64,000 bases of DNA from an uncultured Planctomycetales bacterium. Lineage in GTDB: Bacteria > Omnitrophota > Gorgyraeia > Zapsychrales > JBDRMG01. Below are positions 26 through 48,138 of this stretch, piece after piece (positions within the stretch are counted from its first letter, which is position 1; every line of letters starts with the position of its first letter). The notes beneath the pieces were generated by a model. The model was not told the DNA's origin. It saw only the letters and a list, made by a program, of their open reading frames with translations, and searched no databases. Both the position numbers and the translations under genes were made by a program. Location of the stretch: NCBI GenBank assembly GCA_964478715.1, contig CAYZIY010000001.1, positions 213,196 through 277,195 on the forward strand. Reading direction: 5' to 3'.

Positions 26-490
26 ATGCAGAAGAAAAAAGAAATTTTGATTATTGACGACGAGCAAGAATTGTGCGAACTGATCAAAGAGGTTTTAGAG
101 CAGACCGATCTTTATCAGGTGAGATGGGTTGGTGACGGAAAGACGGGCTTGAGAAAAATTCAAGAGGATCATCCGGATTTGGTTCTTTTGGATCTGGTCA
201 TGCCGGAAATGAAAGGGGATTATCTGCTTAAAAAAATGCAGGAGAATGCGAATACCAAAAATATTCCTGTTATTATTATTAGCGGTTTGGGCGATGTCCA
301 TTTGGCTCCCAGCTGGAAAAAGGGCCAGACATTTGAAGAAAGAGACCAGGATATCAAGGAGTCAAAACTTTATCCTTCTCTGGCCGATGTTTACGGTGTA
401 AAATATTATCTGCCTAAACCATTTGGCCAAAGAGCCCTTGTTGATCTGGTTGAGAAAATATTCAATCGGCAGTCCAGCGAAGCAGCGTGA
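26..490 (+). CDS. Stand-alone response regulator receiver (REC) protein with an extended alpha4 insertion
   Basis: The protein shows a CheY-like fold: ILIIDDE (beta1), LVLLDLVMPEMKG with the phospho-Asp, IIISGLGD (beta4) and YLPKPF (beta5 Lys). It has a GAGGAGG RBS. A roughly 45-aa insert lies between beta4 and beta5. Confidence 0.85.
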   Translation: MQKKKEILIIDDEQELCELIKEVLEQTDLYQVRWVGDGKTGLRKIQEDHPDLVLLDLVMPEMKGDYLLKKMQENANTKNIPVIIISGLGDVHLAPSWKKGQTFEERDQDIKESKLYPSLADVYGVKYYLPKPFGQRALVDLVEKIFNRQSSEAA

Positions 491-499
491 AGGTGAGTC

Positions 500-1393
500 G
501 TGAAGAAGAAAATATTATTAGCCGAAGATGAAGAGGACTTACGGATTTTGCTTTCAGAGAAACTGGAAGCGGCCGGATATGAGGTCCACGCGGCCGCCGA
601 CGGTGAACAGGCCCTTCAAATGGCCCGAGAAATCAAGCCCGATTTGATCATTTCCGATGTGGTGATGCCCAAAATGGACGGTAACCAGCTTTATAAAGAA
701 CTGCGCAAGCAGGACTTCGGCCGCGATATTCCCTTTCTGGTTCTTACCGCTCGGGCGAAAATGAGGGATTATTTTGAGCTAATGCATGTGGATGACTTCT
801 TGGAAAAGCCGGTTACAGGCAAAGAACTGGTGGAGAAAGTCAAAAACGCTTTAGGCACAGAGGACGCATCTCCTCAGGCGGTTACGCGTAAAAAGCCGGG
901 CCGTTCCGATAAAAAGGATGGAGAAATTGTTGTCAATGACGATATCCCCGATTATGTGGAGAAAGTTCTTGATGCGGAAATGGCTTCTAAATCGGAAGGC
1001 GTCTTGGATTTAAAGGATAAAGAAAGAAAAAAGAATGGCAAGACCAAGAAAATTCTGTTTGTTGAGAGTGAGGTGCCTGTTTATCTCGAACTGCAGGAAT
1101 TACTGCATAAAAGAGGCATCGACAGCGAGGTTGTTTGTTCGGCTGGTGACTGCCTGAAGAAAGCGAAAGAGTATTCTCCGGATCTCATTATAGCCAAATA
1201 TGTTTTGTGCGGAATCGGGACTGATCAATTAATCGAAAGTATCCGGGCTATCGATGGCATGGCCGAAACCCCGGTGATTATCTACAGCGATATTGCTCAG
1301 ATTAAAAGAGATCAAAAGAAAAATACGACGCAAGTGATTATGACTCCCGAAGGCCTGGAGCTTTTGCGTAAAATCAGCGAGATTTTGGGTTAA
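500..1393 (+). CDS. Dual-receiver response regulator (two REC domains, no output domain)
   Basis: REC1 reads KKILLAEDEEDL...DLIISDVVMPKMDG...LVLTARA...FLEKP. After an acidic/Lys-rich linker, REC2 reads KKILFVESE...DLIIAKYVL...PVIIYSD. The start is GTG with a GAAGGTGAG RBS. Confidence 0.8.
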   Translation: MKKKILLAEDEEDLRILLSEKLEAAGYEVHAAADGEQALQMAREIKPDLIISDVVMPKMDGNQLYKELRKQDFGRDIPFLVLTARAKMRDYFELMHVDDFLEKPVTGKELVEKVKNALGTEDASPQAVTRKKPGRSDKKDGEIVVNDDIPDYVEKVLDAEMASKSEGVLDLKDKERKKNGKTKKILFVESEVPVYLELQELLHKRGIDSEVVCSAGDCLKKAKEYSPDLIIAKYVLCGIGTDQLIESIRAIDGMAETPVIIYSDIAQIKRDQKKNTTQVIMTPEGLELLRKISEILG

Positions 1394-2208: not shown

Positions 2209-4515
2209 ATGAGAAACGCGTGGTCTCTTCAAATCAAGCCGGGATCCATTGCCTATCTTTTGGGTTTTACGTCCATGGTCAGCCAGATTGTTTTTATGCG
2301 CGAGCTGATCATTGTTTTCTATGGCAATGAGCTGGCTTATGCGCTGATTCTCTCAAGCTGGCTCTTTTGGGTGGGCACAGGGAGTTTTCTCACCAGCCGC
2401 CTTTTGCCAAGATTGCAAGAAGACCAGCGTAAAGCGAGCGTTTTATTTTTGCTTTTTTCTGCCGGCATTTGCTGTTTGTTGCCGATGATGATCGCGATCG
2501 TGCGTTTTCTTCCGCGTTTAGTTGGCGTCAATATCACGCAGACCATGGGCTTAATTTCCATGGGGCTTACTTCGTTTATTTTGCTTTGTCCGCTGACTTT
2601 GATCCTGGGATCTGTATTTGCCTTTCTTTGTTATTATTCTCTGAAGATCAAAAGAAAAGATGCGGCCTCTATCGGCCGGATCTATCGCTGGGAAGCCAAA
2701 GGGGCGGCGGTGGGCGGGCTTGTTTTTTCCTTTCTTTTGATTCATTTGTTTTCGACTCTTGAAATTGTTTTTCTTCTGACGGTGATCAATAGCGGATTTC
2801 TGATTGCTTTAAACCACTCCAGGCGAGTTTTGCTTTGGGGAATAGTTTTCTTAAGCATTGTTTTGATTGCTTTACTAATAAGCGGCGCTCTTAAGACTCT
2901 GGATGACTGGCTGCGCAAAAAACAGTGGGAGCCGCTCTCTGTTGTGGAGGTTCAAGATTCCATCTATGGCAATATTGTATTAACAAAAGAAAATGGGCAG
3001 TACAGTCTCTATGAAAACGGCAGGCATGTGAGCTCTACCGGCGATGAACTCTCCGCCGAAGAGAGCGTTCATTACGCGCTTTTGTCTCATCCTCAGCCCA
3101 GAGAAGTTCTTTTGATCGGAGGCGGATTAACCGGTGCAGTCGAACAAATCCTCAAACATCCGATCCAGCGACTTGACTATATCGAGCTGGATCCAAAGGT
3201 GATTCAAATGGCTTTCAACCATTTCCCGAAAGGTATGGTCCGGCCGCTTAAAGACAAGCGGGTTCAGATCAAAACCATGGACGCGCGCCTTTTCGTGAAG
3301 CAGACGCAGAAGCGTTATGATGTGATCATTGTCAATCTTTCCGATCCGCAGACTGCTTTGGTCAACAGATATTATACGCGGGAGTTTTTTCGGGAAGCGG
3401 CCCGTCTTCTTGAGCCTCAAGGAATGATCTCCTTGGGGGTTTCCTCATCCGAGAATTATCTCAATACCGAGACCCGACGGTTTCTGCGTTCTATTCATGC
3501 TACCCTGCGATCTGTTTTTGCGCAGGTGATCTCGATTCCCGGAGATACCCATTATTTTATTGCCTCTTCCTCTGCAGATGTTCTTAGAGATGATCCCGCT
3601 GTTTTTATTGATCGTCTCAAGCAAAGAGAGATCAACACTCAATATGTCAATGCTGCCTATCTGCCTTTTAAGATGAGCGAGAACCGCCTGCGGCAAATCC
3701 GTGCGATTCTTAAAGGCAGAGGCGTGCTCAATACGGATTTACATCCGCGCACCTATTTGGAGGGGATGCTGTTATCTTCCCGGCGGTTGGGGTCTTCCTT
3801 CAGCAGCTTTCTCGATCATTTTCGTTTTCTTAATCTTGGACTTTTGCTGTTGATTCCTCTGGCGCTTTTTGTCTATGGATTTTGCACTCGGACCAAGTGG
3901 CCCACGCTGGCCGTGTCCACTTCGATTTTAACAACCGGATTTTCAGAAATCATTTTTCAGATTATCGTGATTTTTGCTTTTCAAAGTCTTTATGGATTTG
4001 CTTACTATCGGATCGGTTTGATCATGGCGTCCTTTATGGTGGGGCTGGTGATGGGCGGGTTTCTGGCTGAGCGTCTGATCGCAAGAAAATCGGCGCAGAT
4101 TTTCCGATATTATAAATTCTTGCAGGCCGCTATTTGTTTTTATCCTTTGATTTTACCGTCTGTCTATTTGCTTTTTCATGATATAACGGTCAGCCGGAAT
4201 GTCTTTTTGCTTTCGGGAGTGTTCGCTTTTTTGCCTGTTATCGCCGGCTTGATCGGGGGCTGTCAATATCCTTTGGCGACTTTTATTTGCTCGCATCAGA
4301 ATGAAAAGAGAAGTCGCAGAAGAGCCGATGCGGCCGGTAGGCTGTATGCCCTGGATACCTGGGGAGCGACCCTTGGGGCTTTGCTGACAGCGGTGATTTT
4401 AATTCCGATCTTAGGGATTATCCGGGTTTGCCTGCTGGCGGCGGCGATCAATCTGTCTGTCTATCTGCTTTTGGCGGTGATGCCTTATCCGGCCAGATCA
4501 CCGGAGCGTTTGTAG
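2209..4515 (+). CDS. Spermidine synthase-family (polyamine aminopropyltransferase-like) protein fused to N- and C-terminal polytopic membrane domains
   Basis: A central SAM-MTase/spermidine-synthase core is present: LLIGGGLTGAVEQILKHP, IELDPKVIQMAF and DVIIVNLSDP. Several transmembrane helices flank it at the N-terminus and C-terminus. This is a known 'membrane-bound spermidine synthase-like' architecture. Confidence 0.7.
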   Translation: MRNAWSLQIKPGSIAYLLGFTSMVSQIVFMRELIIVFYGNELAYALILSSWLFWVGTGSFLTSRLLPRLQEDQRKASVLFLLFSAGICCLLPMMIAIVRFLPRLVGVNITQTMGLISMGLTSFILLCPLTLILGSVFAFLCYYSLKIKRKDAASIGRIYRWEAKGAAVGGLVFSFLLIHLFSTLEIVFLLTVINSGFLIALNHSRRVLLWGIVFLSIVLIALLISGALKTLDDWLRKKQWEPLSVVEVQDSIYGNIVLTKENGQYSLYENGRHVSSTGDELSAEESVHYALLSHPQPREVLLIGGGLTGAVEQILKHPIQRLDYIELDPKVIQMAFNHFPKGMVRPLKDKRVQIKTMDARLFVKQTQKRYDVIIVNLSDPQTALVNRYYTREFFREAARLLEPQGMISLGVSSSENYLNTETRRFLRSIHATLRSVFAQVISIPGDTHYFIASSSADVLRDDPAVFIDRLKQREINTQYVNAAYLPFKMSENRLRQIRAILKGRGVLNTDLHPRTYLEGMLLSSRRLGSSFSSFLDHFRFLNLGLLLLIPLALFVYGFCTRTKWPTLAVSTSILTTGFSEIIFQIIVIFAFQSLYGFAYYRIGLIMASFMVGLVMGGFLAERLIARKSAQIFRYYKFLQAAICFYPLILPSVYLLFHDITVSRNVFLLSGVFAFLPVIAGLIGGCQYPLATFICSHQNEKRSRRRADAAGRLYALDTWGATLGALLTAVILIPILGIIRVCLLAAAINLSVYLLLAVMPYPARSPERL

Positions 4516-4681
4516 AAACGGGCTTCTTTTCGTCGTCTCTGATTGTTTGGTGCTTGAAAGACACGAAAGAAAGACGGCAATCGCGCGACAATAAGCAGAG
4601 AAAGAAAGAAGCTTACTCTTTTTAAGAAATCCCGTCGATTGATTCTTGAATCCTGCATTTGATTTTTCCTCCTTTAAATCC

Positions 4682-5656
4682 TTAGGGCCACAGGCCCGGA
4701 ATATTGTTTTGGCAGAATCCGCAGCGGCCCTGGGTAATATGGTTTTCCATAATTCGGTAACCCTGCCGGCGGATGATAATTTTTCCGCACTGCGGGCAAT
4801 AGGTGTGATTGCCCGGATGGCCGGAAACATTACCAACATAAACAAAATGAATGCCCTGACTTTTAGCGATATCATAAGCCCGATTGAGAGTCGCAACCGG
4901 GGTTGGCGGAATATTTCTCAGCTGGTAGACCGGCCAGAAGCGGGAAAAGTGAAGCGGCGTTTCCGTCCCGCAGTTGGCTTTGACCCAGCGGCATAAATCC
5001 CCGATATCTTTCTCGCTGTCATTGAGCGTGGGGATAACCAGATTGGTGAGTTCGATCCACAGGCCTTGCTTCTTCATCGTTAGGATAGCTTCCTGGACCG
5101 GGCGAAGTTTCAAATCACAGATGTCCCGGTAGTAATCTTCACGGATTGATTTCAAATCGACATTGACCGCATGGGTTACCGAGCAGAGCTCGATGAGAGG
5201 TTTTTCTTCGATTGAACCGGCTGTCACCAGGACATTGTAAAGTCCGGCTTCTTTGGCGATCTTCGAAGTATCATAGGTGTATTCATAAAAGATGATCGGG
5301 TCTGTATAGGTATAAGCGATACTGCGGCATTGATTCGCTTTGGCCTGCCGCACAACATCCCCGGGGGGAAGATCAAAATTGTGTGTCTCTTCCGGAGGTC
5401 TTTGAGAGATCTGCCAGTTCTGGCAGAATTTGCAGTGACCGTTACATCCGGCGGTGGCAATCGAAAAAGCGCTGGTTGCCGGAAGAACATGATAAAGAGG
5501 TTTCTTCTCGATCGGATCTATATGCACCGCGCAGGGTTTGCCGTAAACAAGACTGTAAAGTTTTCCGTCGATATTGAGGCGCACGCGGCAGTCGCCGCGT
5601 GCGCCGTTGGTTAAACGGCAGTGTTTAGGACATAATTGGCATTCCACCATACTCAT
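4682..5656 (-). CDS. AmmeMemoRadiSam system radical SAM enzyme (PFL-activase-like)
   Basis: The N-terminus carries a Cys cluster (CQLCPKHCRL...GDC), and the radical SAM CxxxCxxC motif reads CNGHCKFCQNW. Overall similarity is to the AmmeMemoRadiSam family. The start overlaps the upstream gene by 4 bp. Confidence 0.75.
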   Translation of the reverse strand: MSMVECQLCPKHCRLTNGARGDCRVRLNIDGKLYSLVYGKPCAVHIDPIEKKPLYHVLPATSAFSIATAGCNGHCKFCQNWQISQRPPEETHNFDLPPGDVVRQAKANQCRSIAYTYTDPIIFYEYTYDTSKIAKEAGLYNVLVTAGSIEEKPLIELCSVTHAVNVDLKSIREDYYRDICDLKLRPVQEAILTMKKQGLWIELTNLVIPTLNDSEKDIGDLCRWVKANCGTETPLHFSRFWPVYQLRNIPPTPVATLNRAYDIAKSQGIHFVYVGNVSGHPGNHTYCPQCGKIIIRRQGYRIMENHITQGRCGFCQNNIPGLWP

Positions 5657-5883
5657 GGGCTGATGTTTTTAAAATAGCGGGCCGGATGGAGTTTCAGGCC
5701 GGCTTCAGATAATTTTTCTTTTATTTTGTCCACCCGATCGGCAGGTTTCGGAATTTGCGCAGAAACTTTCTGATATATAGACTCATTTTGTTCCGTCTGT
5801 CTGAGGTTTTGGTGAATCAAGGCTCCCAGAAGCGCACAGACAAAGAAGATAAGAAGAATGAATATTTTATCCTGTTTATTCAT
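5653..5883 (-). CDS. Small membrane-anchored protein (76 aa), unknown function
   Basis: The N-terminal TM helix reads IFILLIFFVCALLGALI. The gene is translationally coupled to both flanking genes. Confidence 0.4.
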   Translation of the reverse strand: MNKQDKIFILLIFFVCALLGALIHQNLRQTEQNESIYQKVSAQIPKPADRVDKIKEKLSEAGLKLHPARYFKNISP

Positions 5884-7078
5884 CGAGACAGTCTCTTGAT
5901 TGAACGGTATTTTTCTTCCGCTGTTTAATCCCTCCGATGATTGAACACAACGCTCCCACCGGACAAAAATAACAGCACCAAAAACGGTATTTAAATAAGG
6001 AAATGAGAATAAGCAGGCCCAAAAATAAAAGACCCAGCCAGGTCAATCGGGATCCAAAAAGAAGCACGTAAGGTTCAAAAATAATCGCCTGAGTATTGCC
6101 GAGGATAAAGGCGATCAGCAAACTGGCAAAAAGAACAAGAAAGCGGATATTTCTTAAAAAATCTATTTTACTAGTCGGTTGCAGGCGTTTGATTTTGATT
6201 TTTCTTGCGAACGACCAGGTTATTTCCTGGATACCCCCGAAGGGACATAAGGATCGACAGTAAATATTACGATAGAAAAGGACGCTTAAGAGCGCTAAAC
6301 CGATAATCATAAAAATAAGAGGAAACACGGCCAGGGAAGGTCCTTTTCGCATGGTCAAATTGGCCACGTGAATAATCGAAAACATGGTTTGGGTCAGGAA
6401 ACCGAAGTAAAAGAGGCCGGCTATAATGGCTATCCAGCGCAGCCACTTATTTTTCAAAAAGCTGGCGATAAAAGCAACCACAAAAAGAATAAGAGGAAAA
6501 AAGATCTGGTCCACAGGCCATGCATTTTTCTGATCATTAATGAATTCTCCCTGGAAACTTCCGATCTGGACACTGAGCGCGATGAGGCTTTCTTTCAGCG
6601 TATTTAAGACGGCCTGCGAAGTGACGGTGGCTCCGCTGATGCCGTCAACATCTTCTCCTAAACGGCTTAATGGATTGACGCCTTGATCGACGAGTCGATT
6701 GACATAGCCCTGCAGATCATCCATATAACCGGGTGTCTCCTGATGGGAGAGGACGCGAATACGGGTGACATTTAGCTGAGGGTCTGTCACGACCAGCATC
6801 TCGATCGCTCCGGTATAGCCGATGATATGTTTAGCGAGTTCTGATGTGAGAAAGGCATAAGCCGAAGGTTCTGGTGCTTGAGAAGAAGAGGAATCAAAAA
6901 TTTTATAATAACTGCGGGCGGCTTGGACTCTCTCAATTCGTTGGTTGCCGGAAAGCATGCGGCTGAGTTCTTGCTCGATATCGCTTTGCTGTTTTAAAGC
7001 GGGCGCTTTAAAATACTGCAAGAAAACAAAACCACACAGCGTGATTAGCAGAATGAAGAGCGTATAATTTTTACGCAT
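5876..7078 (-). CDS. FMN-binding-domain membrane protein with polyferredoxin-like Cys motifs (NosR/NapH/RnfG-like)
   Basis: A signal anchor is followed by a periplasmic FMN_bind-like segment (GISGATVTSQAV). Transmembrane helices then carry CPFGG and CYFCPVGALCS 4Fe-4S-type motifs. Confidence 0.6.
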   Translation of the reverse strand: MRKNYTLFILLITLCGFVFLQYFKAPALKQQSDIEQELSRMLSGNQRIERVQAARSYYKIFDSSSSQAPEPSAYAFLTSELAKHIIGYTGAIEMLVVTDPQLNVTRIRVLSHQETPGYMDDLQGYVNRLVDQGVNPLSRLGEDVDGISGATVTSQAVLNTLKESLIALSVQIGSFQGEFINDQKNAWPVDQIFFPLILFVVAFIASFLKNKWLRWIAIIAGLFYFGFLTQTMFSIIHVANLTMRKGPSLAVFPLIFMIIGLALLSVLFYRNIYCRSLCPFGGIQEITWSFARKIKIKRLQPTSKIDFLRNIRFLVLFASLLIAFILGNTQAIIFEPYVLLFGSRLTWLGLLFLGLLILISLFKYRFWCCYFCPVGALCSIIGGIKQRKKNTVQSRDCLDE

Positions 7079-7164
7079 CGCACCCCCTTTCTTCTATTGT
7101 ACTTCCACATAAAGACGAATTCAATATTTGGGACAAAAAGTTATCGATCCGGCCAAGCTTTTAA

Positions 7165-11238: not shown

Positions 11239-11820
11239 ATGAACCATTTGATTGTTTACGCCCATCCCAATCCGGAAAGCTTTAATCACGCGATTGTTGA
11301 AGCTTTGAAAAATTCTTTGGAAGAAAAGGAGAATGAAGTAAAAATACGCGATCTTTATAAACTGAAGTTTAGCCCCACGATGACCCAGGAAGAAATGGAA
11401 GCCACAAAAAAGAGTCTCTATGCCGTTGGTGTTCAAAATGAGCATACCGAAATCAAATGGGCCAATATCATTACTTTTATCTACCCCATTTGGTGGGGCG
11501 GGCCTCCGGCTATTCTTAAAGGCTACCTGGATCGTGTTTTGTGTGACGGCTTTGCCTATACCGAAGGCGAAAGCGGAGCCAAGGCGCTTTTGACAGACAA
11601 GAAAGTGTTTACGATCAACACGATTGACGCTCCCGAGGATGTATATCAGAAAAACGAACTATTTAAATCCATGGATTTGATCTGGGATAAGATCACGCTT
11701 CCCTTTGCCGGCATTGAGCCGATCGGCCATAAATATTTTTCATCCGTTTCTTCCTCAAGTGATGAGGACCGCAAAAAAATGCTGGAAGAGGTGGGCGCGC
11801 TGGCGGATCAACTCAAATAA
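11239..11820 (+). CDS. Flavodoxin-like NAD(P)H:quinone oxidoreductase family protein
   Basis: The N-terminus reads MNHLIVYAHPNPESFNHAI and the segment IYPIWWGGPPAILKGYLDRV matches the Flavodoxin_2/NQO fold. Confidence 0.6.
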   Translation: MNHLIVYAHPNPESFNHAIVEALKNSLEEKENEVKIRDLYKLKFSPTMTQEEMEATKKSLYAVGVQNEHTEIKWANIITFIYPIWWGGPPAILKGYLDRVLCDGFAYTEGESGAKALLTDKKVFTINTIDAPEDVYQKNELFKSMDLIWDKITLPFAGIEPIGHKYFSSVSSSSDEDRKKMLEEVGALADQLK

Positions 11821-17183: not shown

Positions 17184-17573
17184 ATGATTGAAAAAAAGAG
17201 AATTTACAAATGCGAGAAGTGCGGCAATGTGGTCGAGTCGCTGTGGAACGGGAAACCGGATATTTCCTGCTGCGGTCAGGTGATGAAGGCTCTTGAGCCC
17301 AATACGGTGGATGCCGCTAAGGAAAAACACGTTCCGGTGATCGAAAGAAACGGTAATCAGGTGACCGTGAAGATCGGAAGCGAGCCTCATCCGATGACCG
17401 GTGAACATTATATTCTTTGCGTGGAATTGCTCTGCGGCGATCAAGTGTATCGTTATGATTTCAAAGAAGGCGACACTAAGGCGGAGGCAACCTTTCTGAT
17501 TGATGAGAAAGAAACGAATTTAAAGGCTCGTGAGTTTTGTAATTTGCACGGACTCTGGGCCACGGCAAAATAA
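17184..17573 (+). CDS. dfx: Desulfoferrodoxin (2Fe superoxide reductase)
   Basis: The N-terminal desulforedoxin Cys4 site reads CEKCGNV...SCCGQ. The C-terminal SOR domain has KHVPVIE and a centre of His and Cys ligands. Confidence 0.85.
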   Translation: MIEKKRIYKCEKCGNVVESLWNGKPDISCCGQVMKALEPNTVDAAKEKHVPVIERNGNQVTVKIGSEPHPMTGEHYILCVELLCGDQVYRYDFKEGDTKAEATFLIDEKETNLKAREFCNLHGLWATAK

Positions 17574-17581
17574 GAAAACCA

Positions 17582-18382
17582 GTGACAGTTCCCTCTTTTC
17601 AGTATCTTTTCGGTCCAGTGTATTCCTGGCGTCTCGGTATTTCTTTAGGGATTGATCCGATCTCCTGTGGTGAGAAAGTCTGTAACTTTGACTGTTTGTA
17701 TTGTCAATTGGGCCGCACGACTAAGCCGCAGCAAGTTCGAAAAGTTTTTGTTTCCACGGAAAAGATCATTCACGAAATTCAGCACCTGCCGAATATACAG
17801 ATTGATTATTTGACATTTTCTTCGCGCGGGGAGCCCACCTTGGCCGAAAATCTCGGTGAGATAATCCGGGAAATCCGTAGCATCCGCTCAGAGAAAATCG
17901 CGGTTATCACCAATGCCTCTTTGATGCATTTAGAAGAGGTCAAGGGGGATCTGCTGGGCATTGATCACTGCATGGCCAAGCTGGATGCCTGCACTCAAGA
18001 TTTGCTTTTTTCCGTGAACCGGCCGGTGCACGCCCTTCAATTAAACCGGATCATCGAGGGTCTGAAAGAATTTCGCAAAAAATTTCAAGGGAAGCTTTCT
18101 CTGCAGGTGATGTTAATTCAGGAAAATAAAGATTATGCCAAAGAGATCGCGCAGATGATCGGCGTGATTGGCGCCGATGAAATTCAACTCAATACACCTT
18201 TGCGTCCGTCTAATTCCCGGCCTTTGTTCGAGGGGGAATTAAGGCAAATCCAGAAATATTTTTCCCATCTTCCTGTCGTTAATGTTTACGATAAAGAGCG
18301 TAAAGAAATTGCACCCCTCGATTCCCGGGCCACAGCCCGACGACATGGCTCATTTTCAGCGGGCGATCAAGAAAAATCATAA
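17582..18382 (+). CDS. Radical SAM domain protein
   Basis: The CxxxCxxC motif reads CNFDCLYCQLG. The gene lies 9 nt downstream of dfx and is probably co-transcribed. Confidence 0.75.
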   Translation: MTVPSFQYLFGPVYSWRLGISLGIDPISCGEKVCNFDCLYCQLGRTTKPQQVRKVFVSTEKIIHEIQHLPNIQIDYLTFSSRGEPTLAENLGEIIREIRSIRSEKIAVITNASLMHLEEVKGDLLGIDHCMAKLDACTQDLLFSVNRPVHALQLNRIIEGLKEFRKKFQGKLSLQVMLIQENKDYAKEIAQMIGVIGADEIQLNTPLRPSNSRPLFEGELRQIQKYFSHLPVVNVYDKERKEIAPLDSRATARRHGSFSAGDQEKS

Positions 18383-22035: not shown

Positions 22036-25000
22036 ATGGAACGCAAGCAAATCATGATCGACGGAAACGAAGCCGCGGCGCGCGTGGCACACAAAGTTAG
22101 CGAAGTCATTGCGATTTATCCGATCACTCCCTCATCGCCGATGGGGGAATGGGCTGATGCCTGGTCGGCTCAAGGGCAAACCAATATCTGGGGAACGGTT
22201 CCCTTTGTCCAGGAGATGCAGTCTGAAGGAGGGGCAGCTGGTGCTGTCCATGGCGCTACGCAGACCGGAGCGCTCACGACCACTTTCACCGCCTCCCAGG
22301 GTCTGCTTCTGATGATTCCTAATATGTACAAAATCGCCGGCGAATTAAGCCCGGCGCTTTTTCATGTCTCGGCACGATCCGTGGCCTGCCAGGCGCTTTC
22401 GATTTTTGGTGATCATAGCGATGTGATGGCGGCTCGTCAAACCGGTTTTGCTCTTTTAGCCTCTGGCTCCATTCAGGAAGTTATGGATATGGCTTTGATC
22501 GCCCATGCTTCATCGCTGGAAACCCGTGTTCCTTTTCTGCACTTTTTTGATGGTTTCCGTTCTTCTCATGAGATTCAAAAAATTGAGGAAATCGGTGATG
22601 ATGTGATCAAAGCTTTGATCAATGACGAAAGAGTTATTGAGCATCGTCAACGTGCGCTCTCGCCGGATCATCCGGTGCTGCGTGGGACCGCCCAGAATCC
22701 GGATGTCTTTTTCCAGGCCCGGGAGACGGTTAATCCATTTTACGAAAAATGTCCCGGGGTGGTTCAGGAGATGATGAATAAATTTGCCAAACTCACCGGA
22801 AGGCAATATCATTTATTTGATTATTACGGAGCCAAAGATGCCGAACGCGTTATTATTTTGATGGCTTCAGGGATTGAAGCGGCTCATGAGGCCGTGGATT
22901 ATTTGACCGGAGAAGGCGAAAAAGTTGGGGTCTTGAAGGTTCGGCTCTATCGTCCATTTTCGGCTAAGGATTTTATGGATGCGATTCCGTCTTCTGCGAG
23001 GGTTTTGGCCTGCCTAGACCGCACCAAAGAGCCCGGCAGTATCGGTGAGCCGCTTTACCTGGACGCGGTCACGGCCATCAAGGAAGACCCTCGGATCAAT
23101 CCTAAAATTATCGGTGGACGCTACGGATTGTCTTCGAAGGAATTCACCACAGCGATGGTCAAAGGCGTGTTTGATGAAATGAAAAAGGACAACCCCAAGA
23201 ATCATTTTACCGTCGGCATCAAAGATGATGTCACTCATACCAGCATCGAATACGACGAAAACTTCAAGACCGAAGACGAACAGGGTGTGCAGGCAATTTT
23301 CTATGGTCTGGGATCGGATGGGACCGTCAGCGCCAACAAAAATTCTATCAAGATCATCGGAGAAGGCACAAAGAACTACGCGCAAGGATACTTTGTTTAC
23401 GATTCCAAGAAAGCGGGATCGGTTACGGTTTCCCACCTGCGTTTTGGCCCCAATCCCATCCATTCCACTTATCTGGTGAGCGCGGCCAATTTCATCGGTT
23501 GTCATCAATTTGTTTTCCTTGAAAAATATGATGTCCTTAAAAAAGCCAAGCCGGAGGCGGTTTTTCTTTTAAATAGCCCTTATGGCAAGAACGAGGTCTG
23601 GGATAAGGTTCCTAAGGAAGTTCAAGAGCAGATCATCGATAAGAAACTCAAATTTTACGTAATCGATGCTTACAAGGTCGCCGAGGAAACCGGCATGGGG
23701 GTGCGTATTAACACGATTATGCAGACTTGTTTCTTTGCGATTTCAGGTGTTTTACCCAAAGAGGAAGCTATCGAGCAGATAAAAAAATCCATTCAGAAAA
23801 CCTACGGCAAAAAGGGCGAGGAAATAGTGAAGAAGAATTACCATGCTGTTGATCAGACCTTGGTTAATTTACATCAAATTGATGTACCTCAAAAGGCCAC
23901 CAGCCAAATTGAAAAACCACCGGTGGTCAGTTCTGAGGCCCCGGAGTTTGTTCAGATGGTTACCTCCAGAATCATGGCCGCCGAGGGTGACGAATTGCCG
24001 GTGAGTGCTTTGCCCTGTGACGGAACTTATCCGACCGGAACGACAAAATGGGAAAAGCGCAATGTGGCCCTGCAGTGCCCGGTTTGGAACCCGGATATTT
24101 GCATCCAGTGCGGCAAGTGTGCGATGGTCTGTCCGCATGCGGTGATCCGGATGAAAGTTTACGATTCTAAGGAGCTTAAAGGCGCTCCGGAAACATTAAA
24201 ATCGACAGATGCCAAAAATAAAAATTGGGCCGGAAAAAAATGCACGATCCAAGTATCTGTGGAGGATTGTACCGGTTGTGGAGCTTGTGTGTTTACCTGT
24301 CCAGCCAAAAGCAAAGAGGATCCCAAGAAAAAAGCGATCAATATGCATCCTCAGATTCCGTTGAGGGAAATAGAAAAAAAGAACTGGGAATTTTTCCTCA
24401 AGATTCCTGAAATGGATCGTAATCTCGTGAATAAAAAGATGGTCCGTGAGGCTATGGTTCTGCAGCCCTTGTTTGAATTTTCAGGTGCTTGCGCTGGTTG
24501 CGGAGAGACGCCTTACGTGAAATTAATCACCCAGCTTTATGGTGATCGCATGGTGATTGCTAATGCGACCGGGTGTTCTTCGATTTACGGAGGGAATCTG
24601 CCGACCACTCCTTACACGACCAATCTAGAGGGTAAGGGGCCGGCCTGGTCCAATTCTCTGTTTGAAGATAATGCTGAATTCGGGTTCGGATTTCGCCTGA
24701 CGATTGACAAGCAAACCGAGTATGCCTGTGAGCTTTTAAAGAAGGTTTCCTCCCAAGTCGGAGAACAGGTGGCGCAAGGTATTCTCAATAATGCCCAGGC
24801 CGATGAGCCGGCTATCTTTAAACAGCGCAAGATGGTGGAACAGCTTAAAGAAAAGCTAAAAACGGTAAAAAGCAATGAGGCCAAACAACTTTTGAGTGTG
24901 GCGGATATGCTGGTCAAAAAGAGTGTTTGGATCTTAGGCGGTGACGGATGGGCTTACGACATCGGTTACGGTGGATTAGATCACGTTTTGGCTTCAGGAC

Positions 25001-25602
25001 GCAACGTCAATATTCTCGTTTTGGATACGGAAGTGTATTCCAATACCGGTGGGCAGGCATCCAAGGCGACACCTCGGGCAGCTGTGGCTAAATTTGCGGC
25101 CAGCGGTAAGCCAGTAGCCAAAAAAGATCTGGCACGTATGGCCATGACCTACGGCACGGTGTATGTCGCTCAGATTGCAATGGGAGCCAATGATATGCAG
25201 GCGCTCAAAGCGACGACCGAAGCCGAAAATTATGACGGTCCGTCTCTGATTATTGCCTACAGTCATTGCATCGCCCATGGCATCAATATGACAACCGCAA
25301 TGAACAATCAGAAAATGGCGGTGGCCAGCGGTTATTGGCCGCTGTTTCGCTACCATCCGGATCTAGCCAAGGAAGGGAAGAATCCTTTCATGCTCGATTC
25401 GCAGGAGCCGAAGATGCCATTCGCCGAGTTTGCTTACAATGAAAATCGTTTCAAGATGCTTACAAAGTCGATGCCGGAGCATGCCAAGAAACTGATTGAA
25501 GAGGCCCAAAGAGATGTGGATAATAAATGGAAGATCATTGACGCTTTGGTTGCCGGAACCGATCCGGCCAGTTTAAAGAAAGAGCCGGTAACGGTAAAAT
25601 AA
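22036..25602 (+). CDS. nifJ: Pyruvate:ferredoxin (flavodoxin) oxidoreductase, single-polypeptide NifJ/PFOR type
   Basis: The 1188-aa protein has two ferredoxin CxxCxxCxxxCP motifs (CIQCGKCAMVCP; CTGCGACVFTCP). The TPP domain is marked by GGDGWAYDIGYGGLDH. Confidence 0.95.
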   Translation: MERKQIMIDGNEAAARVAHKVSEVIAIYPITPSSPMGEWADAWSAQGQTNIWGTVPFVQEMQSEGGAAGAVHGATQTGALTTTFTASQGLLLMIPNMYKIAGELSPALFHVSARSVACQALSIFGDHSDVMAARQTGFALLASGSIQEVMDMALIAHASSLETRVPFLHFFDGFRSSHEIQKIEEIGDDVIKALINDERVIEHRQRALSPDHPVLRGTAQNPDVFFQARETVNPFYEKCPGVVQEMMNKFAKLTGRQYHLFDYYGAKDAERVIILMASGIEAAHEAVDYLTGEGEKVGVLKVRLYRPFSAKDFMDAIPSSARVLACLDRTKEPGSIGEPLYLDAVTAIKEDPRINPKIIGGRYGLSSKEFTTAMVKGVFDEMKKDNPKNHFTVGIKDDVTHTSIEYDENFKTEDEQGVQAIFYGLGSDGTVSANKNSIKIIGEGTKNYAQGYFVYDSKKAGSVTVSHLRFGPNPIHSTYLVSAANFIGCHQFVFLEKYDVLKKAKPEAVFLLNSPYGKNEVWDKVPKEVQEQIIDKKLKFYVIDAYKVAEETGMGVRINTIMQTCFFAISGVLPKEEAIEQIKKSIQKTYGKKGEEIVKKNYHAVDQTLVNLHQIDVPQKATSQIEKPPVVSSEAPEFVQMVTSRIMAAEGDELPVSALPCDGTYPTGTTKWEKRNVALQCPVWNPDICIQCGKCAMVCPHAVIRMKVYDSKELKGAPETLKSTDAKNKNWAGKKCTIQVSVEDCTGCGACVFTCPAKSKEDPKKKAINMHPQIPLREIEKKNWEFFLKIPEMDRNLVNKKMVREAMVLQPLFEFSGACAGCGETPYVKLITQLYGDRMVIANATGCSSIYGGNLPTTPYTTNLEGKGPAWSNSLFEDNAEFGFGFRLTIDKQTEYACELLKKVSSQVGEQVAQGILNNAQADEPAIFKQRKMVEQLKEKLKTVKSNEAKQLLSVADMLVKKSVWILGGDGWAYDIGYGGLDHVLASGRNVNILVLDTEVYSNTGGQASKATPRAAVAKFAASGKPVAKKDLARMAMTYGTVYVAQIAMGANDMQALKATTEAENYDGPSLIIAYSHCIAHGINMTTAMNNQKMAVASGYWPLFRYHPDLAKEGKNPFMLDSQEPKMPFAEFAYNENRFKMLTKSMPEHAKKLIEEAQRDVDNKWKIIDALVAGTDPASLKKEPVTVK

Positions 25603-30396: not shown

Positions 30397-31305
30397 ATGA
30401 AAAGATTTTTTGTTATCTGCGGCGGGATTTATCTTCTTTTTGTTTGTTTAATCTGCGTACTTTTGTCCGTGATGATGGTTGTGGTTCCGGGATCGGAAAG
30501 AGTCGATTTAAACCAGAGCCTTTTGATGCAGATTCTCGGAGCTGTTTTATATGGGTCCCTGGCTGTTCTTTTTGGCGCGATGGCTGTGGGACTTTTTCGT
30601 TTGAAGAATTGGGCAAGAATTGGCACGCTGATCATTTCCTTTCTTGCTCTCTTTTTGGGATTGATCATGATTGCGGCTATGTTTCTTTTTCCCATACCGC
30701 AGACAGTGAGTGCTCGCCAGGGTGTACCAGATATGGGGCAGGTAAGAGCTATTATGAGCACGTTTTCTTTTATTTTCTTTCTTGCGATTCCTCTGGCATA
30801 CATTATTCTTTTGAGTGTTAAATCTATCCGAGTTTTGTTTACCGGGGAAACGACTGAGAACAGCGAGGAAGTTGGGCGGGGCATTCCTTTAGGCATTAAG
30901 ATGATCGGAGCGCTAAATTGCCTTTCCGCATTTAATCTAGTAACAGTTTGGTTTCATCCCGTTTTTTTTAAGATACAAATAGGCCCATTGATTATTGGGG
31001 GAATATGGTCTCGCATTCTTTTTTTTGTAACGAGTCTTGCGACATTCTTTATCGGAATCGGGTTTTTCAAATTAAAAAAATCAGCCTGGATCGGATTTAT
31101 TGCGCTTTCTGTTTATGGGGCATGCATTCTGTTAGCCAACATTATTTTTCTAAATCCAATGATCTTAAAGGAAATCATTCCAGATCAGCAAAAGTCAATA
31201 CCATGGACAGTTGAAAGCCTTAAAGCGCTTTTATCGATAAATCTCATTTGGCAGCTTGCTCTGCTTTGGTATACCATCAAAAAGAAAAAACATTTTACTA
31301 CTTAA
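30397..31305 (+). CDS. Polytopic membrane protein, unknown function
   Basis: About 8 transmembrane helices are predicted. No motif is recognised. Confidence 0.45.
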   Translation: MKRFFVICGGIYLLFVCLICVLLSVMMVVVPGSERVDLNQSLLMQILGAVLYGSLAVLFGAMAVGLFRLKNWARIGTLIISFLALFLGLIMIAAMFLFPIPQTVSARQGVPDMGQVRAIMSTFSFIFFLAIPLAYIILLSVKSIRVLFTGETTENSEEVGRGIPLGIKMIGALNCLSAFNLVTVWFHPVFFKIQIGPLIIGGIWSRILFFVTSLATFFIGIGFFKLKKSAWIGFIALSVYGACILLANIIFLNPMILKEIIPDQQKSIPWTVESLKALLSINLIWQLALLWYTIKKKKHFTT

Positions 31306-31321
31306 AAGGAAAGGTAAGAAA

Positions 31322-31837
31322 ATGGCTGAGAAAATGAAGATTGTGATGATTGATGATGAGAAAGATTTATGCTTGATGGTGAAAGATAATTTGGAAGACC
31401 AGGGAAAGTTTGAGGTGGCAACAACTACAGATCCCACTCAAGCCCGGGATTTATGCCTTCAAGAAAAACCGGATATTATTCTTCTGGATATTGTGATGCC
31501 GAAACTCGAGGGCACTCAAGTGATCCGCCTCTTGCGGGAAGATGCGCAGCTTAAAGATACTCCAATTATTGTCTTAAGCGGATTAGGCGAAATGGCCTAT
31601 TCTAAACGGGGCAACAGGTGGAGTTGGCAGCCCAATCAGCCTCTGGTACGCCAACGAAGCGAGAATGTTATCAAGGAACGCAGCACGGATGTGGCCGCCG
31701 AGAAATATGATGTTGAAGCTTATTTGCACAAACCGTTTTCGACTGAGTCTTTGGTTGAGACTCTTCAGAGGGTTTTTAAGGAGCAGCAGAAAAGAAAGCA
31801 ACAGCAGCAGGAAGAAGAGCGTCGTCCCGGTATCTGA
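31322..31837 (+). CDS. Stand-alone REC protein with Trp-rich alpha4 insertion and Gln/Glu-rich tail
   Basis: REC elements are MKIVMIDDEKD, IILLDIVMPKLEG and IIVLSGLGE. The insert reads RGNRWSWQPNQP... before YLHKPF. The start is the ATG following an AAGGAAAGG RBS. Confidence 0.8.
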   Translation: MAEKMKIVMIDDEKDLCLMVKDNLEDQGKFEVATTTDPTQARDLCLQEKPDIILLDIVMPKLEGTQVIRLLREDAQLKDTPIIVLSGLGEMAYSKRGNRWSWQPNQPLVRQRSENVIKERSTDVAAEKYDVEAYLHKPFSTESLVETLQRVFKEQQKRKQQQQEEERRPGI

Positions 31838-31876: not shown

Positions 31877-32356
31877 ATGGATAAAAAAATTCTTGTTGTC
31901 GATGATGAAGCCGAGCTTTGCGAGATGATGCAGCGTGTTTTAGCTAAACGCGGTTACCAGGTCATCGCTACCACAGATTCCAAACAAGCTTTAGATTTAT
32001 GCAAAAGCGAGCTTCCGGATTTGATCATTCTCGATATCATGATGCCGGAGTTAAAAGGCGATGCCGTGATTGAGCTTTTAAAAGGCGATCCGAAGACCCG
32101 GCATATTAAAATCATTGTCGCTAGCGGTCATGGCGAAATGGTTTATGATAGTAAGCAGGACAAGTGGTGCTGGATGCCCAATGAGCCCAATGTGGAAGAT
32201 CACAATGAACGGGTTGATGACCGTTGGCCTTCCCGGGCGGCGGAAGCATTGGGCGCGCAGCATTATCTCAAGAAACCTTTTATGCCCGTAACGCTTTTGT
32301 CTGTTGTGAAGGATGTTTTAGCGAAGAAATCCGACGAGCAACAAGACGATCAATAA
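31877..32356 (+). CDS. Stand-alone REC protein with Trp-rich alpha4 insertion (paralogue of 31322..31837 and 26..490)
   Basis: REC elements are KKILVVDDEAEL, LIILDIMMPELKG and IIVASGHGE. The insert reads KQDKWCWMPNEP... before YLKKPF. Confidence 0.8.
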   Translation: MDKKILVVDDEAELCEMMQRVLAKRGYQVIATTDSKQALDLCKSELPDLIILDIMMPELKGDAVIELLKGDPKTRHIKIIVASGHGEMVYDSKQDKWCWMPNEPNVEDHNERVDDRWPSRAAEALGAQHYLKKPFMPVTLLSVVKDVLAKKSDEQQDDQ

Positions 32357-36197: not shown

Positions 36198-36872
36198 ATG
36201 CAACTAACCGGAAGCTGGGTTGATTATGTCATTGTTTTTTGGGCTGGCGTTTTAGTCAGTTTCTCACCATGTATCTATCCTCTGATTCCGATCACCGCAT
36301 CCTTTATCGGGGGTGTGAATCCTCGTCAATCAAAGTTTTTCGGATTTTTTGTCTCCGTGATTTATGTTTTTGGCCTGGCTGTTTCCTACAGCGCTTTGGC
36401 CGTTGTGGCGGCTTTAACCGGACGCTTTTTCGGTGATATTCAAAATCATCCTGTTGTTTATTTTATTATTTCCGGTTTTCTTTTTTTCTTCGGCTTAACC
36501 ATGCTTCATGTCATTCCCCTGGGGATGATCGGATTGGATTTTAAAAAGAAGATCAAGATTCAAAACACCTGGTCGGTTCTTGTCTTTGGAATGGCGGCCG
36601 GTCTCATTGTCAGCCCCTGCACAGCGCCTATTTTGGGGACGATCTTGCTCTACATTTCCTCTAAGCAAAATATCATTCATGCGGTCAGCCTGATGTTTGT
36701 TTTCTCTTATGGTGTGGGTTTTCTTCTGATTATTGTCGGAACTTTCTCTGGTTTGCTCAGCGGCCTGCCAAAGTCCGGCGCCTGGATGAATTTCGTCCGA
36801 TATCTTTGCGCTACTGTTTTATTTCTGGCAGCGAGCTATTTTCTGATTAAGGGAATCCGCCTGATGATTTGA
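36198..36872 (+). CDS. ccdA: Cytochrome c-type biogenesis protein CcdA / DsbD transmembrane-domain family
   Basis: Six transmembrane helices are predicted, with the two conserved Cys in FSPCIYPLIP and VSPCTAPILG. Confidence 0.75.
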   Translation: MQLTGSWVDYVIVFWAGVLVSFSPCIYPLIPITASFIGGVNPRQSKFFGFFVSVIYVFGLAVSYSALAVVAALTGRFFGDIQNHPVVYFIISGFLFFFGLTMLHVIPLGMIGLDFKKKIKIQNTWSVLVFGMAAGLIVSPCTAPILGTILLYISSKQNIIHAVSLMFVFSYGVGFLLIIVGTFSGLLSGLPKSGAWMNFVRYLCATVLFLAASYFLIKGIRLMI

Positions 36873-47701: not shown

Positions 47702-48103
47702 ATGGCAAAAAAAATTCTTGTTGTCGATGATGACCCAACCGTTGTACACTTGATCCAATCTCGCATGGAAGTCAACGGGTATGAAGTGATCTCCGCTTCC
47801 GATGGAGAAGAGGGCTTGAAATTTGTTCGGGATTATGAGCCGAATTTGGTTTTGCTTGACGTGATTCTGCCAAAAATGGATGGGTATACTTTTGTTAAAG
47901 AATTTAAAAAGATTGCAGATCTGAAAACCATTCCCGTCATTGTCATGACCGTTAAAAGCCAGCTTCAGGATCTCTTCAAGCAAGAAGGCATTGAGGCCTA
48001 TATTATCAAACCCATCAAGCTTCAGGATTTATTGAAAAAGGTCGAGTCTTATATCGGACCCGCTCAAGGCCCAAGCAATCCGCAATCCCAGCAAGGAACA
48101 TAA
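47702..48103 (+). CDS. CheY-like stand-alone response regulator receiver
   Basis: REC elements are KKILVVDDDPTVVHLI, LVLLDVILPKMDG, VIVMTVK and YIIKPIK. Confidence 0.85.
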   Translation: MAKKILVVDDDPTVVHLIQSRMEVNGYEVISASDGEEGLKFVRDYEPNLVLLDVILPKMDGYTFVKEFKKIADLKTIPVIVMTVKSQLQDLFKQEGIEAYIIKPIKLQDLLKKVESYIGPAQGPSNPQSQQGT

Positions 48104-48138
48104 GAACTTATCCATTGGTTCAAATTGACGTCGAGAAA

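Follow-up and report, generated by a model that had tools for sequence, protein, structure and literature searches.

Where does the radical S-adenosylmethionine (SAM) enzyme of an AmmeMemoRadiSam system work, and what reduces it? The AMMECR1/Memo/radical-SAM trio has no known function, two of its three parts are conserved from archaea to humans, and radical SAM enzymes are regarded as cytoplasmic. The question is raised by a 64,000-nucleotide stretch of an uncultured Planctomycetales bacterium (contig CAYZIY010000001.1; the whole 64-kb stretch is called the window below), in which the radical SAM gene of this system, at 4682..5656 on the minus strand, lies among genes for a flavin mononucleotide (FMN)-binding membrane redox protein and two small proteins, one of them with a twin-arginine signal-like segment. 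We propose, with confidence evenly divided, that the window encodes an outward-facing variant of AmmeMemoRadiSam built like the RdhABC module, in which the radical SAM enzyme would hitchhike through the twin-arginine translocation (Tat) pathway and a flavinylated conduit would serve as its electron source.

The open reading frames (ORFs) listed in the original prediction for this locus were all found, and the best hits assign the window to Omnitrophota. The minus strand carries one four-gene operon, which encodes an RdhC/PceC-type ('NapH-like') membrane redox protein of 400 amino acids (aa) (5876..7078), a single-transmembrane protein of 76 aa (5653..5883) whose gene overlaps both of its neighbors, the 324-aa radical SAM enzyme, and an unannotated twin-arginine mini-protein of 57 aa (4485..4658), recognized from its sequence and from homologous small ORFs. 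ATGA overlaps had been claimed at both upstream junctions; one is present between the 76-aa and radical SAM genes, and the 400-aa/76-aa junction is instead an 8-nt overlap, ATGAATAA. Just upstream of the 400-aa gene is a promoter-like site, TTGAAT-17-TACAAT (7096..7124, minus strand), a possible operon promoter that comes from a consensus scan alone and belongs to a class of sites no more numerous than the shuffled expectation.

The assignment of the radical SAM protein to the AmmeMemoRadiSam family holds: it scores 362.4 bits against TIGR04337 (cutoff 220, profile positions 11-333) and 59.7 bits against Pfam Radical_SAM. The alternative of a PflA- or NrdG-type activase fails, with 39.7 bits to PflA (cutoff 231.75) and 32.2 bits to NrdG (cutoff 131.15). 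The CX3CX2C motif is C71-NGH-C75-KF-C78, and it is accompanied by C6/C9/C13/C23 and by a C-terminal CxxC...CxxC; the cysteines of the family are invariant across 19 homologues. A search of solved structures found none for the family, and the closest solved fold to a relative with a fused signal is PflA (TM-score 0.79-0.80 on the target). The window enzyme lacks a signal peptide of its own, and it also lacks the first ∼10 profile positions of the family: fused relatives match TIGR04337 over positions 1-333, so that its own match is less than full length.

The N-termini of the family were compared in a neighborhood survey of 80 genome loci around radical SAM homologues (48-67% identity, from many phyla), the best 80 of at least 554 TIGR04337 matches. 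Searches of the loci, which are cited below by L numbers where one has to be told from another, used both the proteins of the window and profiles made for this analysis. Three classes of N-terminus were found. The enzyme carries a fused Tat signal, RRxFLK (e.g., LTRREFLK or DRRRFLK), and a linker in 45 of the 80 loci, and in these proteins a motif KEA+FY+KL stands directly ahead of the conserved VxCxLCP. Another 29, like the window enzyme, are bare and begin at VxCxLCP, and in the remaining six a hydrophobic anchor is followed by the KEA+FY+KL motif. Downstream of the bare enzymes lies an ORF of 41-87 aa in 28 of 29 loci, which is every one with downstream sequence, and these mini-ORFs join a twin-arginine (or RK/KR) signal-like segment to a C-terminal copy of the motif.

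The 57-aa ORF occupies this position in the window and consists of MQDSRINRRDFLKR, a hydrophobic stretch and ...RRKEARFYKRSGDLAG. It conforms to the twin-arginine consensus (S/T-R-R-x-F-L-K) with S-R-I-N-R-R-D-F-L-K-R followed by VSFFLSLLIVARL, and its C-terminus is a copy of the radical SAM N-terminal strand motif. An AGGAGG Shine-Dalgarno sequence is located 9 nt before its ATG, and its 3' end overlaps a convergent gene for a 768-aa protein by 31 nt (4485..4515), a convergent overlap that recurs in L006 (31 nt) and L008 (25 nt). The window's ORF is absent from protein collections; its relatives there are labeled 'hypothetical', and the L008 homologue is a 'twin-arginine translocation signal domain-containing protein' at NCBI.

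A hidden Markov model (HMM) trained on 19 of the small ORFs was searched against 22,430 six-frame ORFs. It recovers the mini-ORF family at 43-74 bits; the next-best matches are the N-terminal extensions of Tat-fused radical SAM enzymes, aligned over nearly the full model length, and after these come just two weak matches, both to small ORFs flanking bare enzymes. Judged by these profile matches, the 57-aa ORF is homologous to the Tat-signal extension that the largest class of relatives carries on the enzyme itself. Among curated models, TIGR01409 is the sole family match for nine of 10 N-terminal sequences tested, two of which pass its cutoff; relatives that score above Tat-model cutoffs include the L010 small ORF (25.1 bits) and the extensions in L031 and L045 (22.8 and 18.0 bits).

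The part played by the C-terminal motif is suggested by the fused enzymes. In these proteins the TIGR04337 profile begins exactly at KEA+FY+KL. An AlphaFold2 model of the fused member P0143 (predicted local distance difference test score, pLDDT, 86.5) leaves the signal (residues 1-28) disordered and gives the motif a pLDDT of 94, with a strand at Y45-K47 adjacent to V53-C55, where the bare enzymes begin, and placed so that the two could form a hairpin. Because the start of the profile and the model both place the motif within the enzyme fold, bare enzymes would appear to be missing an integral strand, which the neighboring gene would encode attached to an export signal.

A second copy of the motif is found on the 76-aa protein. 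This protein has a single transmembrane helix, is N-in by charge, and has an outward tail that ends ...GLKLHPARYFKNISP, again matching the N-terminal strand motif of the radical SAM family. A chimera of the tail and the radical SAM enzyme aligns to TIGR04337 positions 2-333, with the tail colinear with positions 2-10 and the enzyme alone covering 11-333. Homologous tails close the upstream gene in 12 related loci, with the consensus ...GL.P.EA+Y[WYF]K in loci of the Omnitrophota type. The tail-bearing gene may encode a full FMN/Fe-S protein (L008, L009, L013), a secreted FMN_bind-only protein (L011, L012, L015) or a small anchor, and in L008 the counterpart of the 76-aa protein is fused to the FMN/Fe-S protein. 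Since the tail directly follows the secreted FMN_bind domain in L011, L012 and L015, with no transmembrane helix between, and in L008, L009 and L013 comes after an additional transmembrane helix appended to the RdhC-like protein's cytoplasmic C-terminus, three independent architectures are predicted to hold the motif outside the membrane. A programmed -1 frameshift that would join the 76-aa protein to the radical SAM enzyme at the ATGA was rejected: a slippery site is lacking, several genomes encode the two separately, and in L008 the 76-aa part is joined to the FMN protein instead. In three Omnitrophota loci, a membrane protein with an N-terminus that by eye is like that of prolipoprotein diacylglyceryl transferase (Lgt) is encoded just upstream of the FMN_bind-only or anchor gene (L011:8673-9437, L012:8759-9499, L076:4518-5237).

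The 400-aa protein matches FMN_bind (PF04205, 56.3 bits; gathering threshold, GA, 22) over residues 87-165 and Fer4_5 (PF12801, 46.3 bits) in two stretches. By hydropathy it consists of an N-terminal transmembrane helix, the FMN_bind domain and about five more transmembrane helices. Its flavinylation motif is D145-G-I-S-G-A-T151, that is, S148-G-A-T151, and its two CX3CP motifs (C274 and C368) sit in K/R-rich loops and are thus predicted, by crude hydropathy, to be on the cytoplasmic side. It falls below the cutoffs of the related models (NosR, 73 bits against 1000; RnfG, 51.8 bits; NapH, 43.2 bits against 213), and the closest solved relative of its FMN domain is RnfG. The label 'polyferredoxin membrane protein' given in the original prediction can be kept in part: FMN_bind and two CX3CP Fe-S motifs are present, but the ferredoxin dicluster domain, found in close relatives, is absent. 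FMN_bind domains that are flavinylated by ApbE at [S/T]GA[S/T] motifs are extracytosolic electron-transfer modules, and NapH-like proteins, the majority of them without a known partner, move electrons across the membrane (PMC8238504). On its domains and motifs, the 400-aa protein is a member of this 'NapH-like' class of flavinylated transmembrane electron carriers, resembling RdhC/PceC, with an FMN domain predicted to face outward. Because the FMN domain would face outward, any donation of electrons from this protein to the radical SAM enzyme would most likely take place in the periplasm. The idea of a dedicated redox partner is retained, supported by cross-phylum synteny and gene fusions, but not the delivery on the cytoplasmic side that had been implied.

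Among homologues of the 400-aa protein, the top three (33-36% identity) keep the gene order of the window, with the FMN/Fe-S gene followed in some cases by a gene for 78 aa and then by the radical SAM gene (324-325 aa), an ORF of 46-50 aa and, in convergent orientation, a Spermine_synth gene. The second tier (28-30% identity) consists of RdhC proteins in rdhA-rdhB(VcrB)-rdhC operons beside Tat genes. No nosZ, nap or rdhA gene lies within 12 kb. In the closest relatives (the P0002, P0003 and P0004 contigs and L006:620-1466), two divergently transcribed 2Fe-2S_thioredx (NuoE-like) genes stand upstream of the FMN/Fe-S gene; these are candidate cytoplasmic electron donors, and they are absent from the same position in the window. 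The flavinylation motif varies among FMN partners, reading T-H-A-T or T-Q-A-T in L011:9430-10008, L013:8476-9801 and L015:7918-8541, and the partners in L009, L042, L049 and L069 do not match the simple pattern.

The predicted co-occurrence of FMN_bind genes with TIGR04337 in other genomes was borne out in 18 of the 80 independent loci, from Omnitrophota, Elusimicrobia, Planctomycetota, Nitrospirota, Chlamydiae, Auribacterota and UBP3. The partners take five forms: RdhC-like, RdhC-like with a Fer4 dicluster, secreted FMN_bind only (L011, L012 and L015), a SpeE-like fusion and a DsbD_2 fusion. Five Pirellulales genomes have a single ORF of ∼1300 aa that combines FMN_bind and Fer4_5 with the spermidine-synthase-like membrane protein. 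Triple fusions of DsbD_2, FMN_bind and Fer4_5 (L029:7961-9706, L060:1744-3435, L066:5585-7252) lie directly upstream of radical SAM enzymes with KK-type anchors. The distribution of FMN partners follows the N-terminal class of the enzyme: a partner accompanies 18 of the 35 enzymes that lack a fused Tat signal and none of the 45 that have one (Fisher p=1.3e-8 for 18/34 vs 0/43 in the 77 loci classified by script, the remaining three being assigned by eye). A sensitive FMN_bind HMM likewise found no match in the Tat-class loci (630 kb). The association occurs in at least four subclades of a neighbor-joining tree of the radical SAM core, with gene orders that vary between clades. A DUF362 gene is located directly upstream of 12 Tat-fused radical SAM genes and of none outside that class (L016, L045, L046, L053, L054, L057-L059, L061, L064, L075 and L080), about half of these DUF362 proteins having a twin-arginine signal of their own; the role of DUF362 may correspond to that of the FMN partner.

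The other two components of the system are encoded as one protein. The fusion of Memo (protein B) and AMMECR1 (protein A) at 48139..49653 on the plus strand was confirmed with TIGR04336 (274.5 bits, cutoff 26, residues 33-300) and TIGR04335 (180.9 bits, cutoff 99, residues 337-506), and it scores 211.6 bits to Pfam Memo and 184.8 bits to AMMECR1. Starts at 48115 and 48139 are possible, of which the ATG at 48139 is likely. As had been noted, the three-gene system is split in this genome, with the fusion 42.5 kb from the radical SAM gene rather than adjacent to it; elsewhere the fusion adjoins the radical SAM gene in 28 of the 80 loci. The fusion begins with the signal peptide MKRVFSILTVIFLFSSVA ahead of a cysteine, the junction reading ...LFSSVA-C, and MKRVFSILTVIFLFSSVAC satisfies a permissive lipobox pattern. 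A hydrophobic signal stands at the N-terminus of each of the 27 fusion homologues examined, which supports the exported nature claimed for the fusion. By eye the signal ends in a cysteine in about 18 of the 27, the rest being of the signal-peptidase-I type; a stricter lipobox pattern matches 11 of 27. From this pattern the window's fusion is a probable lipoprotein. A CheY-like receiver (47702..48103, 85.6 bits in Pfam) is encoded immediately upstream of the fusion.

The commonest neighbor of the radical SAM family, in about 40 of the 80 loci, is a gene of the type that converges on the operon in the window (2209..4515, plus strand). Its 768-aa product scores 98.7 bits to Spermine_synth (PF01564, GA 22.9) and 96.7 bits to the fused MFS/spermidine synthase family NF037959 (cutoff 40), and, by a family-averaged hydropathy profile, has 7+7 transmembrane helices around a central spermidine-synthase-like domain at residues ∼236-539. 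Loop charge counts gave K+R values of 20.4 vs 5.5 in 30 of 30 homologues, on which basis the domain is predicted to be periplasmic. In SpeE structures, the acid of GGG[D/E]G and the first aspartate of D-x-[S/T]-D-P bind decarboxylated SAM and the amine. Both acidic residues of the aminopropyltransferases are replaced in the 768-aa protein (GGGLTG and NLSDP; E to L and D to N when aligned to 1uir). Among the 30 homologues, the first is L, M, V or A, and the first aspartate of DxxDP is asparagine in 21.

These features can be assembled into the following mechanism for the outward-facing variant. The 57-aa protein would bind the folded, cluster-loaded radical SAM enzyme by β-strand complementation and take it through Tat as a hitchhiker, and the exported enzyme would remain tethered at the outer face of the membrane. 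Electrons would pass from a cytoplasmic or membrane donor through the CX3CP Fe-S sites to the covalent periplasmic FMN, which would act as a flavodoxin surrogate and reduce the [4Fe-4S] cluster of the enzyme; flavodoxin is the physiological reductant of PflA. The PflA-like enzyme and the Memo-AMMECR1 lipoprotein would then act on a protein or envelope substrate. Hydrogenases and formate dehydrogenases are established cases of Tat hitchhiking, in which a signal-less partner is transported (PMC10924467). Broadened to the family, the reading would be that TIGR04337 enzymes are Tat substrates in many phyla, with a split, trans-acting signal of ∼50 residues supplying the first β-strand in one large group that includes the window, and an RdhC-like conduit doing the reducing; we hold this wider version tentatively, at somewhat short of an even chance.

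Several observations weigh against export of the enzyme and its reduction from outside. The 57-aa ORF is under the curated Tat thresholds, with 13.2 bits to TIGR01409 (cutoff 16.7) and 12.4 bits to PF10518 (GA 22.7), and we infer the docking step itself. Adding either small-protein tail to the radical SAM sequence lifts the TIGR04337 score by only 0.6-1.5 bits, a weak gain taken alone, and the 76-aa and 57-aa proteins offer two competing strand motifs for the one strand position of the fused enzymes. The enzymes in L029, L060 and L066 are fused to a hydrophobic anchor of the KK type and have neither a twin arginine nor a mini-ORF, a combination at odds with Tat export. No tatA or tatC gene was found in the 64-kb window, where tblastn with TatA and TatC of L002 returned noise only, and a regular expression for an ApbE-like motif had no match in the window or in the 80 related loci. 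The topologies come from hydropathy and the positive-inside rule, with no trained predictor behind them. The availability of SAM in the periplasm is, to our knowledge, not established.

The strongest rival, in our judgment unlikely but with real support, keeps the radical SAM enzyme in the cytoplasm. The RdhC-like conduit would then connect the two compartments through electrons alone, and its periplasmic FMN would serve the exported Memo-AMMECR1 protein; the CX3CP clusters would exchange electrons with the radical SAM enzyme or with cytoplasmic donors; the target of the enzyme, such as the Memo-AMMECR1 precursor, would be modified ahead of export; and the small proteins would be membrane tethers or independent. 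Both SAM and Fe-S assembly are found in the cytoplasm, the metal-dependent redox proteins of the Memo family could accept electrons from FMN, and the window enzyme has no signal of its own; the twin-arginine-free anchors and the sub-threshold Tat scores given above speak for the same arrangement. Against it, canonical Tat signals on 45 of 80 family members place the enzyme outside the cytoplasm in many lineages. The mini-ORF is moreover homologous over its whole length to the signal extensions and occurs exactly where the extension is absent, and on secreted FMN_bind-only proteins the motif is reachable only by a periplasmic partner.

It is improbable, though conceivable, that the 57-aa ORF is instead a precursor like those of ribosomally synthesized and post-translationally modified peptides (RiPPs), whose C-terminal motif the radical SAM enzyme would modify before Tat export. 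Small ORFs beside radical SAM genes are often precursor peptides, the C-terminal motif with its aromatic residues is conserved, and the enzyme core is similar to PflA, whose substrate is a protein loop. However, the motif forms an ordered N-terminal strand in the fused relatives (pLDDT 94) and is also present on FMN-binding proteins and anchors, so that a docking element fits better than a substrate. Family and Pfam profile scans, in addition, detected no SPASM or RiPP-recognition domain.

That the 400-aa protein is a generic respiratory NapH/NosR-like quinol dehydrogenase, adjacent by chance and with no shared function, is hardly credible: NapH-like proteins are modular and pair with many oxidoreductases (PMC8238504), and the next-closest homologues of the 400-aa protein serve reductive dehalogenases, but the genes are tied by overlapping reading frames, the association recurs in at least four subclades with varied gene orders and architectures, Rosetta-stone fusions join the FMN protein to other cluster members, FMN_bind matches are zero in 630 kb of Tat-class loci, and no nosZ, nap or rdhA gene is nearby.

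The outward-facing variant can be set beside the systems it resembles. Like AmmeMemoRadiSam elsewhere, the window passes all three models (TIGR04335, TIGR04336 and TIGR04337) and has the CX3CX2C and extra cysteine motifs. It differs in that the genes are 42.5 kb apart, the radical SAM enzyme lacks profile positions 1-10, and the partners are exported; an RdhC-like FMN/Fe-S protein, two putative small strand-donor proteins and a SpeE-like membrane protein are added. The 400-aa protein shares with RdhC/PceC and NosR the N-terminal anchor, the outward FMN_bind domain with SGAT, the multi-transmembrane core and two CX3CP motifs, and RdhA (a Tat-exported Fe-S enzyme), RdhB (a small anchor) and RdhC parallel the layout of the window module. 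Unlike those systems, it has no rdhA, rdhB or nosZ nearby, scores below the NosR and NapH cutoffs, lacks a C-terminal ferredoxin domain and would have a radical SAM enzyme as its acceptor.

As in the Tat hitchhiker pairs HybO/HybC, FdnG/FdnH and DmsA/DmsB, a signal-less Fe-S protein is encoded beside a twin-arginine partner; the carrier in the window would, in contrast, be a protein of the 41-87-aa type, made of a signal and one passenger β-strand and encoded downstream. The likeness to PflA and other glycyl-radical activases lies in the closest fold and in a small radical SAM enzyme with a protein as substrate and an FMN protein as reductant, but the window enzyme scores 40 bits against a cutoff of 232, has the extra N-terminal four-cysteine and C-terminal CxxC...CxxC motifs, and has no glycyl-radical enzyme nearby. 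The 768-aa protein is like the PRK03612/NF037959 aminopropyltransferases in carrying a Spermine_synth domain in a polytopic membrane protein (89 bits to Thermus thermophilus SpeE, 1uir), and unlike them in the family-wide replacement of the acidic residues, the predicted periplasmic location of the domain and the genomic tie to TIGR04337.

Taken singly, AmmeMemoRadiSam, this class of conduit and Tat hitchhiking are all known, and the fusion of Memo and AMMECR1 has been noted earlier (PMC2034487). In the literature searched, no paper on this system itself was found, and no description was found of the combination of the system with a conduit and Tat hitchhiking, of Tat signals on a radical SAM family, of a stand-alone signal-plus-strand mini-protein, or of a link between a radical SAM enzyme and a SpeE-like membrane protein. 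A pairing with radical SAM enzymes goes unmentioned in the main text of the flavinylation survey (PMC8238504). Within the accessible part of its supplement, Radical_SAM/PF04055 neighbors are listed in Dehalococcoides, and no entries occur for Memo, AMMECR1 or spermidine-synthase neighbors (PMC8238504).

Elsewhere in the window, a second Radical_SAM protein (17582..18382, 266 aa, 54.6 bits) directly follows a 129-aa cysteine-rich ORF (region 17184..18382), whose N-terminus, KCEKCGNVVE, resembles desulfoferrodoxin by a look at the sequence. Further redox components with no evident operon link are a CcdA/DsbD_TM thiol-disulfide membrane protein (36198..36872, 124.9 bits) and a Flavodoxin_2 protein (11239..11820, 144.9 bits). 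The N-terminus of a 1188-aa ORF (22036..25602) resembles pyruvate:ferredoxin oxidoreductase, a putative low-potential electron source. At least five stand-alone receiver proteins are encoded (26..490, 500..1393, 31256..31837, 31877..32356 and 47702..48103); the last was called with Pfam and the others by sequence or precomputed annotation.

What the locus means for the family depends on where its chemistry takes place. Given the view of radical SAM enzymes as cytoplasmic, the Tat signals on 45 of the 80 family members are a surprise. A signal peptide of ∼50 residues acting in trans would, if true, be a new form of Tat targeting, and the radical SAM enzyme is proposed as an acceptor for the NapH-like flavinylated proteins, most of which have no known acceptor. 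Because the exported version comes with a conserved SAM-fold partner in the membrane and with a transmembrane electron supply dedicated to it, it would narrow the location of the substrate, the choice of reductant in vitro and the partners for co-expression. The published functional guess for AMMECR1, this radical SAM enzyme and a Memo-type dioxygenase is RNA base modification (PMC2034487), which is hard to reconcile with exported components. If true, radical SAM chemistry outside the cytoplasm would argue against the RNA-modification prediction for the bacterial systems and would point to a substrate in the envelope.

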